Source: Candidatus Velthaea sp.
GTDB taxonomy: Bacteria; Vulcanimicrobiota; Vulcanimicrobiia; Vulcanimicrobiales; Vulcanimicrobiaceae
Reading direction: 5' to 3'
NCBI GenBank assembly: GCA_050012475.1
Contig: JBEKHC010000050.1
Location: 1-36,205 of the forward strand
Length of the DNA: 36,205 nucleotides
Shown here: positions 15,001 to 18,000 of the stretch, piece by piece
How positions within the stretch are numbered: the first letter of the stretch is position 1
Layout: each line of letters begins with the position of its first letter
Made by a program: the position numbers

Positions 15001-18000
15001 GCGTCGCGCGCGGCGCATTGACGTCGCTCAGCACGACCGTGTACCCGTCGGCCGCCAACACCTCCGCGGTCCGCCGTCCGATGCCTTGCGCGGCGCCGGT
15101 GACGACCGCGACCAGAGCGGACGCGTTCATTCGATCGATTCCCATCGCTGCATGCCCTGCGGCTTCCGCACGCGCCGCGGGGGCTCCCAGCAAGGATTCG
15201 CGGCGCCGAATGCGCCGCGAATCCATGGCGTTCGGGCCTTCGGCCCGAGCCGCGCGTGGCGTTTGCGCTGCGTGCGCGAAGCGCCGGTGTTAGGAGCGGC
15301 GCGTTCTGCCGCCGTCGAATCGAACCCGCGTGGACACAGCACCCGCCGGCCGCCGCGAAGAGTCCGTAGCGGTGGCCGCGAGCGCCGCCGATGTGAGCAC
15401 GGCGGAAGCGAACTCGACCGAACGCATCTTGGCGGACGTCCTCGAGCGGCTCCGCCGGCGTCAAGCCGAGCGTCCGTGGCTGATGGGACTCACGTCGCTG
15501 GGTCTCGCAAACGCGCTGAGTTTGCCCGAACCCGCGCTCATCCGCATTTTGGCGCCATTCGTCGGCAGCGCCCGGTTAGCGCTGCGCAGCGGCTACTATT
15601 CGACGCCGGATTTCTCGCCGCGGCTCAACGTCGAACAGCAGGCCTTTTTCGATGCGGCGTTCGCCGCGGAAGCTGGTTGTGCACCGATGCCGCAAGGCTT
15701 TACCGACCTCCGCCTGCGCATCAAGAGCAGTCCCGTTCCCGAGTTGCGCCAGGCCTTTGAGACCCTCATCGCCAGCGGCGCACTCTCCAAGGTTGGCGAT
15801 TTCGTCTATCTTGGTTCGCATCTGGCGGCGATTCGAGCACAGCTCGAAACCGCGCTCGAACGCCAGCCCGGCCTCACCGTCGCGCAATTTCGAACGCTGA
15901 TCGGCACCTCACGCAAATTTGCCGTTCCGTTGCTCGAGTTCTTCGATGCGACCGGAGTGACGCTGCGCAACGGCGACGAACGCGTGTTGCGCCCGAGCGC
16001 GCCCAAAATGGAGATCGCGGCCGAAGACTCAGAGATGCTCTGATTTCGTCCTGGCGAAGAGCACAGCGGCGAAGTTTGCTTCAGCAAATGAGGCGCGCAG
16101 CGACGACGTCCAGCGCTAAGTCGGAGCGTCCCTACGTCGTCGCTGCCGCCTGAAGCACGAATAGCAGCAGCGAATGCGCGGTGGTTTCGTACGCATCCCC
16201 GGTCTCGAAGACGGAGTGCGGAACGGTTTGTTCCTGATTCGTGTCGATCAGCAAGGCCCAGCTCGACCCGCCCGCGCTCTCCGGCAGCGTGAACGAAACG
16301 ACGTCGTAATGCGCGTTGAAGACGATGAGGACCGTCGCATCGCTGCCCTTGAGCCGAATGCCCGTCGGCTGCGCCCGGCCGTCGATCATCATGCCGAAGC
16401 AGTGCGTCGACTCGTCCTTCCACGTCTCTTCGCGCATCTCGACGCCCGAAGCGTCGATCCAAGTGACGTCCTTCACGTCGAGTTCGGCATTGTACTCGCC
16501 GGTGAGAAAACGGCTTCGGCGCAGGATCGGATAATCGTGTCGTAGGGTCGTCAGCCGCGCGACGAACGCGATCTGCTGCCGCGCGAGGTCGTCGAGATTC
16601 CAGTGCACCCAACTGATGTCATTATCTTGACAGTACGCGTTGTTGTTGCCGCGTTGGGTCCGCGCGAATTCGTCGCCGGCGAGCAGCATCGGCGTGCCCT
16701 GCGCCAGCAGCAACGTCGCGAGCATGTTGCGCATTTGTTTGCGGCGCAGCGCAAGGATCGCCGCATCGTCGGTCGCTCCTTCCGCACCGCAGTTCCACGA
16801 GCGATTGTTCGAGCTGCCGTCAGCATTGTTTTCGCCGTTGGCTTCGTTGTGCTTGTCGTTGAACGTTACGAGGTCGTTGAGGGTGAAGCCGTCGTGCGCG
16901 GTCACGAAGTTGACCGACGAGCGCGGTTTGCGCCCGCGCCGATTGAAGAAATCGGGCGACGCGCACAGCCGTGGCGCGAGCGCCGCCGCCGGCGCCTCAC
17001 CGCGCCAGAAATCGCGCACGGTGTCGCGAAAGCGGTCGTTCCACTCCGCCCAGCCGGGCGGAAACATCCCGACTTGATAGCCTCCCGGCCCGATATCCCA
17101 GGGCTCGGCGATGAGCTTGACCGAGTTCAGAACCGGATCTTGCCGGCAGGCTTTGAGAAAGCCGCTCTCGTTATCGAAACCCTCGGTCTCGCGTGCGAGA
17201 ACGGTCCCGAGATCGAAGCGAAAGCCGTCGACGCGCATCTCGTTGACCCAATAGCGCAGACTGTCGGTGACGAGTTGGATGACGCGCGCGTGCGAGAGGT
17301 TGAACGTGTTACCCGTTCCGGTGTCATTGATGTAATAGCGCTTCTCATCGGGCATGAGGCGGTAGTACGAGGCATTGTCGATCCCGCGAAACGACAAGGT
17401 CGGTCCGCGCTCGTTGCCTTCCGCCGTATGGTTGTACACGACGTCGAGCACGACTTCGATCCCGGCCTCGTGAAAGCGCGCGATCATCTCTTTGAATTCG
17501 GCCAAGATCCGGTGCGCACCATGCGCGTAGCGCGGATCGGGCGCAAAGAAGCCGATCGTATTGTAGCCCCAGTAGTTGGTAAGTCCTTTTTGCAGCAGCA
17601 AGTCGTCAGAAACGAACGCGTGCACGGGCAACAATTCAACCGTCGTGACGCCGAGCTTCTTGATGTAGTCGACAACAGCGGGTGAGCCCAGCCCAGCGTA
17701 GGTTCCGCGCAGATCCTCGGGCACGTCGGGATGAAGCTTGGTGAAACCGCGCACGTGCGCTTCGTAGATAACCGTCGATTCCCAGGGCACCACACGCCGC
17801 GAGCGCTCGGCGTGCCAGTCGAAGTTCTCGTCGACGACGACGCATTTGGGAACGAACGGCGCGCTGTCGCGTTCGTCGTACGAGAGGTCTTCATCTTTTG
17901 CGCCCAGCGTGTAGCCGAAGCAGGCGCCGTTCCACGTCAAGTCGCCAACATGCGCCCGGGCGCACGGATCGAGCAGCAGTTTGTTAGGATTGAAGCGGTG

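Follow-up and report, generated by a model that had tools for sequence, protein, structure and literature searches.

A gene that encodes only the winged helices WH2 to WH4 of the selenocysteine (Sec) elongation factor SelB occupies positions 15372-16043 of the window, i.e. of the whole stretch of DNA analysed here (36,205 nucleotides from a Candidatus Velthaea genome, G000). It is a real protein-coding gene that was left after deletion of selA and of the GTPase half of selB, and purifying selection on stand-alone copies of this kind is as strong as on intact SelB; that the stand-alone domain IV is a selected protein at all is highly probable. SelB is commonly regarded as serving a single purpose and as the signature gene of selenocysteine use. 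The repeated loss of the Sec machinery, on seven to eight occasions, with WH2-WH4 being kept under purifying selection indicates that the RNA-binding end does something else, and we infer that domain IV in this family of the Vulcanimicrobiota has a second job, which would need neither tRNA-Sec nor GTP.

The stand-alone gene and its locus

The first-pass annotation had described an intact gene of 223 aa for the C-terminal winged helices of SelB only, and this description holds. The frame is open over its 223 aa within an enclosing stop-to-stop frame of 249 codons, the start being uncertain (GTG 15330, GTG 15372, GTG 15393 or TTG 15429), and its mean coding score of 0.31 is slightly below the lower quartile of long training ORFs (0.33), with a score of -0.24 for the 78 bases upstream. 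SelB-wing_3 (PF09107) is the sole Pfam match of the protein (residues 162-206, E 1.3e-19, 69.8 bits against a cut-off of 23.2), residues 24-206 align with domain IV of Moorella SelB, that is with WH2-WH4, and the AF2 model (pLDDT 94, pTM 0.83) has the tandem winged-helix fold, the first 12 Foldseek matches of which are all SelB (best 1LVA, 2UWM and 2PLY, E about 1e-11). With the model of full SelB (TIGR00475) the protein scores 28 bits, where the cut-off is 242, over residues 166-207 only, and neither the G-domain nor domains II-III are found in it. The gene, its parts and its surroundings are the following:

14345..15142, minus strand: short-chain dehydrogenase gene, divergent, context only; also adjoins the remnant in G139 and L069
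15372..16043, plus strand: stand-alone SelB domain IV gene (WH2-WH3-WH4), 223 aa, from open frame, PF09107 and fold
15426..15611, plus strand: WH2 (about residues 19-80) with the PWxxGxT and E53 motif, present in 14/14 stand-alone sequences analysed
15612..15809, plus strand: linker and WH3 (about residues 81-146), from AF2 model and dN/dS
15810..15995, plus strand: WH4 (about residues 147-208), the SECIS-reading wing, from the PF09107 match and invariant residues
16030..16135, no strand: palindromic repeat of about 100 bases that overlaps the remnant stop codon, outside the system and repeated in G000 (45 matches; 60 by blastn, of which 50 span at least 70 bases)
16132..18270, minus strand: glgX-like glycogen debranching gene, convergent; also downstream of full selB in the congeners G076 and G116

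In the family, selA and selB originally stood in the order gyrA-trxA-selA-selB-(add)-clpB. Of the remnants, eight lie directly behind trxA and two behind trxA and one inserted gene, while those of G000 and G139 are found at the relocated site of their genus, before glgX; since a glgX-like gene also follows full selB in G076 and G116, it marks the ancestral site there. The remnant is a direct descendant of the family's own selB at the ancestral locus. An N-terminal part of selB was found neither near the remnant nor elsewhere in G000, other matches to congener SelB being weak and mostly to the GTPase end, and a plasmid search gave no match.

No partner gene travels with the remnant in the neighbourhoods compared; the downstream genes differ and are often convergent. 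This bears on the idea that retention of the DNA, or of its translation, serves a neighbour, by coupling to add, as an overlapping ORF or as a promoter or RNA. In G079 and G117 the remnant stop does overlap the add start (ATGA). However, apart from the varying and often convergent downstream genes, trxA is joined directly to add in three g41 genomes, and a search within the remnant for conserved ORFs, antisense or shifted, for internal starts that have a conserved ribosome site and for blocks of strong synonymous constraint found none, selection acting on the amino acids, so that such a role in cis is very unlikely.

Repeated loss of the selenocysteine machinery

That G000 is devoid of selA, selD and tRNA-Sec, as had been claimed, is borne out in its assembly (93.8% complete, 5.3% contaminated) by the lack of any selA match, by selD matches under cut-off only (E 9e-27) and by a best tRNA-Sec match of E 1.5e-6, with none reported by ARAGORN. 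Among 151 genomes of the family, the wing is present in 141, selA over cut-off in 129, selD in 133 and Sec-type formate dehydrogenase in 96, and RF01852 exceeds its cut-off in 114/150. A wider draw yielded the wing in 248/268 genomes; there, 21 candidates among the matches listed were checked for selA and 10 for frame length, and PF12390, which is too insensitive as a selA marker (207/268), was used only for picking candidates.

A stand-alone frame together with the absence of selA, selD and a true tRNA-Sec was found in at least 12 genomes of eight genera (G000 and G139; G002; G004 and G080; G032 and G252; G060; G074; G079 and G117; G279), compared to the seven genomes of five genera reported earlier under other handles, which do not map one to one onto these 12. 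All 12 frames are open. RF01852 matches in G117 and G279 are borderline (47.5-47.7 bits, against 65-78 for full-length true genes). Sec-type formate dehydrogenase (TIGR01553) over cut-off was found in 0/12 and selD is absent as well; the known SECIS-carrying genes (selD, fdoG/fdnG) are thus gone from all 12 genomes. As G004 is a single contig and G080 consists of two, missing assembly is no explanation for the Sec-less state. Left out as incomplete, at a contig edge or still with Sec genes were G061, G062, G107, G093, G238, G253, G269, G270, G159, G228, G265 and G276. Genomes flagged as unpublished in the family tallies (G008, G019, G021, G028, G029, G041, G051, G096, G100, G109, G120, G134, G142, G269 and G355) include none of the 12, G029 being part of one control pair in the tests of selection.

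Outside these genomes, a metagenome scan gave 17 loci, of which L060 and L069 are stand-alone and L067 and L070, on short contigs, appear to be so. A search of representative sequences and the Atlas returned SelB fragments devoid of context, among which stand-alone genes and contig-end pieces are not separable. No stand-alone frame was found in 67 genomes from other families of the phylum, the single short frame (G301) lying at a contig edge.

The remnants are scattered on the domain tree as well as on the prfA tree, and in four genera they stand beside or among Sec-positive congeners. G279 is nested in the Sec-positive g25 (support 96-100), G032/G252 are sister to the Sec-positive g33 (support 100), the pair G079/G117 stands beside the Sec-positive g4, and G000/G139 lie within g1. 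In the prfA tree G000 groups weakly (66) with the Sec-positive G076; gene context instead unites G000, G139 and L069. Because G002 and G074 also group, if weakly, the losses are counted as seven to eight events, and the stand-alone frame is the outcome of as many independent losses of Sec. The truncation was not always made at about the same point, as had been supposed, for WH1 is retained in G139, in the contigs L067 and L069 and in several database proteins; it is absent from the remaining stand-alone copies, so WH2-WH4 are the minimal unit and WH1 is optional.

Two lineages have lost both the wing and the Sec genes, namely g41 (9/9 genomes with neither wing nor selA; selD checked in four) and G047. 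Four trxA loci examined in wing-less lineages bear no trace of a remnant, including the direct trxA-add junctions in g41 mentioned above, and G055, whose assembly lacks trxA as well, was for that reason not counted as wingless. The nine g41 genomes and G047 imply that the job is not an essential one.

With respect to known systems, the remnant resembles bacterial SelB domain IV (WHD1-4; Moorella thermoacetica 1LVA, 2UWM with WH2-WH4 and SECIS, 2PLY and 1WSU; Escherichia coli 2PJP and 5LZB; PF09107) in sequence, fold and WH4 motif. In contrast to it, the remnant is a natural stand-alone gene devoid of the G-domain, of domains II-III and often of WH1, with a relaxed WH4, and resides in genomes that lack tRNA-Sec, selA, selD and any known SECIS mRNA. 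A SelB derivative in non-Sec use is also described in the available part of PMC5389517, where SelB* accompanies the selC* tRNA-Cys; however, SelB* comes from an additional selB gene that adjoins a tRNA of its own, and its hosts keep the full Sec apparatus, whereas the remnant is the RNA-binding end only, and neither G000 nor the 54% of G004 covered gave a UCA tRNA. In Sec-less bacteria, orphan SelA and orphan SelD, as far as the accessible text of PMC1794560 and PMC5029168 goes, likewise are single pieces that outlive the trait, but these are whole enzymes. SelB, in turn, is taken in the same portions of both papers as a signature of the Sec trait, with perfect consistency reported in PMC5029168. 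Leftover selB sequence is known from recent Sec losses in Mycobacterium liflandii and M. pseudoshottsii (PMC13449736, in the sections available); there it consists of pseudogenes, in contrast to the open frames described here, with their dN/dS of about 0.14 at near-saturated synonymous divergence. A SelB domain IV standing alone was not reported in the literature searched, which consisted of main texts with few subscription papers among them; genome tables in supplements could list such genes. Databases label proteins of this kind 'selenocysteine-specific elongation factor'; on them, neither this label nor a PF09107 match is an indicator of Sec use.

Selection on the winged helices

Selection was estimated from sister pairs that share junction or context, as cross-genus comparisons mix in history before the loss, over about 190 codons by maximum likelihood (MG94, F3x4). 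The dN/dS is 0.139 for G079/G117 (dS 2.1), 0.146 for G004/G080 (dS 1.7), 0.099 for G032/G252 (dS 2.4), 0.131 for G000/L069 (dS 1.65) and 0.238 for G000/G139 (dS 1.5), all with p < 1e-12 against 1, and among 24 control pairs, in which selB is full-length or cut by a contig end, it ranges from 0.07 to 0.21. Pooled over four sister pairs the value is 0.138 (CI 0.104-0.174), compared to 0.124 (0.117-0.132) in 19 full-length pairs. Neutral sequence simulated at the same GC gives a median of 0.87-0.92, so that composition is no explanation for the low values. Repeated independent retention and purifying selection after the loss, which the first-pass annotation had proposed, are upheld by sister-pair and branch-aware tests, but its dN/dS of 0.3-0.6 gives way to 0.10-0.24 under maximum likelihood. 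In the branch model, foreground equals background in g1, g4, g5 and g33 (p < 1e-13 against neutrality), and G002 and G074 are saturated.

Might these copies nevertheless be decaying relics of recent parallel losses, their low dN/dS having been inherited from the era of the whole gene? On terminal branches G060 is indistinguishable from neutral (dN/dS 0.54, p 0.48 against neutrality), and its copy may be decaying; G279 (0.35) and G000 alone (0.32, p 0.007 against 1) are raised, four copies have no canonical start nearby, and separate Sec losses in sister genomes are conceivable. However, the sister pairs share junction and context at a dS of 1.6-2.4 and a dN/dS of 0.10-0.15, and a branch with 0.5-1.0 neutral substitutions per site would, even without indels, have kept a frame without stops with a probability of 0.02-0.05, yet 12/12 frames are open. 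In addition, a new N-terminal start (MDE...) is common to G080, P0024, P0026 and P0027, and selA lacks a canonical start in part of the Sec-positive loci, too (see below). Decay is therefore improbable as a general explanation, and for g1, g4, g5 and g33 it is largely refuted.

The constraint is not distributed as in intact SelB. It is unchanged in WH2 (dN/dS 0.107 stand-alone, 0.142 in full-length pairs) and WH3 (0.135 and 0.140), and WH4 is relaxed about 1.8-fold in stand-alone copies (0.153, CI 0.102-0.216, against 0.087, CI 0.073-0.103, the intervals barely touching). The WH4 motif FR...G[TS]SRKY.VPLLE..D..G.T.R.GD.R is present, with drift at 170, 175, 180, 183 and 202. R181, P186, E189, D192, R199 and R204 are invariant in 14/14 stand-alone and 103/103 full-length sequences, and of the other basic residues R174 is kept in 13/14 and K182 in 12/14 stand-alone copies. 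V170 occurs in 11/14 remnants compared to 9/103 full-length sequences, and T180 in 7/14 compared to 8/103, by a tally of present-day sequences that takes no account of the tree. In 11/14 remnants the net charge of WH4 falls short of the +4.7 that full-length sequences average, and in five it is 0 to +2; that of WH3 is lower than the mean of -1.7 in 10/14. The designation of the module as the 'SECIS-binding part' of SelB thus fits only in part: the parts most strictly kept are WH2-WH3, and it is the SECIS-reading WH4 that is relaxed.

Winged helices serve in DNA binding and as protein scaffolds, and a role not involving RNA would be in line with this general knowledge, with the weaker fold matches of the window protein to UFL1, ScpB and ESCRT-II and with the lowered WH3 charge. 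Against this stands that the residues invariant on the surface are arginines of WH4 which all 103 full-length SelB sequences share, and that no partner gene accompanies the remnant, which renders such a role unlikely.

Ligand, proposed function and expression

In the family, SECIS elements consist of a stem of at least six pairs with an RGUYY loop (20 selD and 21 fdoG/fdnG loci), and a scanner built on this recovers 36/40 of them. Around 14 remnants it found a single sense-strand match, and in G000 it yielded 2.32 per 1000 loops compared to 2.24-2.58 for control loops, i.e. background. Hairpins common to G000 and 54% of G004 are not in excess (2/58; controls 2/57, 7/99 and 5/120). The two shared hairpins, at this control-level rate, lie in pyruvate:ferredoxin oxidoreductase-like and carboxyltransferase-like genes, as identified from sequence. 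Further candidates were rejected: a hairpin upstream of prfA is of the terminator type with a loop that varies in relatives, a molybdopterin match with a TGA, on C2, resembles a nitrate-reductase-like gene and is a frameshifted remnant, and no RGUYY hairpin accompanies the Cys-type formate dehydrogenase on C5.

These searches bear on a specific translational repressor, in which the remnant would bind a SECIS-like operator hairpin in one or few mRNAs. E. coli SelB acts in this manner in the selAB leader, according to the available sections of PMC13449736, so that there, too, the SECIS-binding end is used beyond decoding. In favour of a repressor, the core WH4 residues are kept, and the enrichment of V170 and T180 beside them could mean a changed hairpin. 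By the same sections, however, repression in E. coli requires full-length SelB, GTP and Sec-tRNA and serves Sec homeostasis, whereas no SECIS-like leader was found for the remnant: the one sense match around 14 remnants, the background level in G000 and the shared hairpins lacking any excess all argue against an operator, and the retention of WH2 is left unexplained. We therefore regard a repressor as rather doubtful.

Neither do the stand-alone genomes appear to be decoders of UGA by SECIS, given Sec-type formate dehydrogenase in 0/12, absent selD and no excess of a TGA read-through signal in G000, where coding signal continues past the stop in 25 candidates of 943 coding-like TGA stops, compared to 24/622 for TAA and 25/591 for TAG. 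A UCA-anticodon tRNA was found neither in G000 nor in 1.6 of the 2.98 Mb (54%) of G004. The same results tell against a helper for Sec-free UGA read-through, as Cys or Trp, in former selenoprotein genes: SECIS-tethered SelB blocks RF2, as stated in the accessible part of PMC5311926, and G000 has three tRNA-Cys-like genes, but fdoG/fdnG and selD are gone, and such a helper is hardly credible. As these scans revealed neither a SECIS-like target nor a TGA excess, nor a UCA tRNA or overlapping element, the ligand is probably something other than a canonical SECIS.

A Sec-independent job, as previously suggested, is supported by retention and selection after the known SECIS-bearing genes (selD, fdoG/fdnG) had gone from all 12 genomes. 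In our preferred reading, which we hold to be an even call, the module would bind RNA as an adaptor independent of Sec, docking at the mRNA entry of the 30S subunit and recognising a hairpin other than SECIS. WH2-WH3 would dock on the 30S shoulder (16S helix 16 and protein uS4), in the manner seen for domain IV in structures of SelB on the ribosome, WH4 would grip its hairpin less strictly than it did the SECIS before, and the adaptor might act on ribosomes that meet structured mRNA, by pausing, clearing or gating. The deletions would then have removed the Sec-only parts and halted where the part still in use begins. WH3-4 fragments alone have been solved with SECIS bound (1WSU, 2PJP), yet WH2 is kept in every stand-alone copy. 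According to the available text of 10.1101/2025.02.04.636165, SelB domain IV makes contact with both h16 and S4, and a contact of WH1-WH2 with h16 was modelled in PMC4605307, as far as its accessible part shows. Against the adaptor, WH1, which that model likewise places on h16, is dispensable, and the net charge of WH4 is lowered in most remnants; the wing-less lineages, the raised terminal branches, the missing starts, the low-depth transcripts from one study and the lack of stand-alone frames in the other families examined count against it as well.

More tentatively, domain IV might dock on ribosomes as an RNA adaptor whose role in translation is general and independent of selenium; this role would be active in Sec-positive cells of the family, too, and would have been exposed only once the decoding half was deleted. 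In trxA-linked genomes domain IV would perhaps be made by use of a non-canonical start or by +1 frameshifting out of thioredoxin, a route which selA apparently uses in relatives. As a small and, by prediction, well-folded protein, the remnant offers a direct route to the ligand.

As to its synthesis, the stretch from the trxA stop to the first WH2 helix is free of ATG, GTG and TTG in G060, G079, G117 and G279; such a codon stands within trxA in G060 and G279 but not in G079 and G117. The remnant is in the +1 frame relative to trxA in 7/8 trxA-adjacent cases (5/6 lineages). Since selA likewise has no canonical start in 12/60 Sec-positive loci, 10 of these 12 being in +1 and from three lineages, a missing start is no mark of a dead gene. 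A 9-base insertion in L139 leaves the +1 frame of selA intact. By these counts, which are small, a near-cognate start or a frameshift may be used in trxA-linked copies.

A scan for sigma-70 promoters and terminators gave 0 sites. Metatranscriptome contigs from one study, at a depth of 4-7, lie inside the window gene at 15506-15758 (related strain) and 15726-15878 (identical); they do not show the strand or exclude DNA as their source, and, as the RNA runs of this study cover only 8-22% of the words, uncovered stretches are uninformative. The high RNA depth at 16020-16140 falls on the palindromic repeat.

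Translation of selA behind trxA

At 12 of the 60 Sec-positive loci, no ATG, GTG or TTG codon can be found from the trxA stop to the conserved N-terminal PAVHR motif of selA, as exemplified by L170 (genome G024), L172 (G091), L131, L063 and L130, and further by L062, L139, L098, L113 and L106. In ten of these twelve, selA lies in the +1 frame. The selA frame is open at several such loci from just 23 bases ahead of the trxA stop; where 9 bases have been inserted at the trxA-selA junction, the reading frame is preserved. Taken together, the start-less junctions, the late opening of the frame and the frame-keeping insertion suggest that selA may be translated either from a near-cognate start within trxA or via a +1 shift.

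Divergent selB copies and SECIS placement

In family f12, SelB frames are shortened to 485-497 codons at L262, L264, L265 and L266 (genomes G315, G304, G308 and G312). Their N-terminal half is intact and the last wing diverged, and selA is present in all of these genomes; the inner winged helices have probably been deleted. A full-length but diverged second selB copy, with 31% identity to the family SelB, resides on contig C25 of G317 (L268).

The 5' region of selD (L181-L200) carries a UGA followed by two hairpins, of which the one with an RGUYY loop of SECIS type is located at +33 to +37, in contrast to +19 to +23 in fdoG. In genera g33 and g72 (G095, G125, G146, G071, G113 and G136), selA and selB are present along with a selD gene lacking the TGA, and no match to a Sec-type formate dehydrogenase was found in these six genomes; inserted genes, about 8-13 kb in total, often separate selA from selB.

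Surroundings of the stand-alone SelB gene and other loci

Besides the stand-alone gene, features of the window include:

12259-14255: three ORFs of 184, 289 and 167 aa
16030-16135 and 24222-24420: palindromic repeat of roughly 100 bases
18422-21280 (-) and 21441-24209 (+): two divergently oriented genes for AAA-ATPase/LuxR regulators

The three ORFs, whose order is kept in G139 and L069, have no match in Pfam or NCBIfam; the 289-aa product may be a glycoside-hydrolase-19/lysozyme-type protein. The palindromic repeat occurs in 45-60 copies in G000, and pieces resembling it are common in RNA-library contigs.

Elsewhere, G000 harbours three tRNA-Cys(GCA)-like genes differing from one another in sequence, the C39 copy having an irregular anticodon arm:

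C39:65828-65900
C49:32258-32331
C61:5000-5070

It also contains a frameshifted, nitrate reductase-like remnant of a molybdopterin enzyme (C2, about 80300-81400; L205). In G003, a diverged second prfA copy (C171, L227; 48% identity to G000 prfA) probably reflects contamination or transfer.
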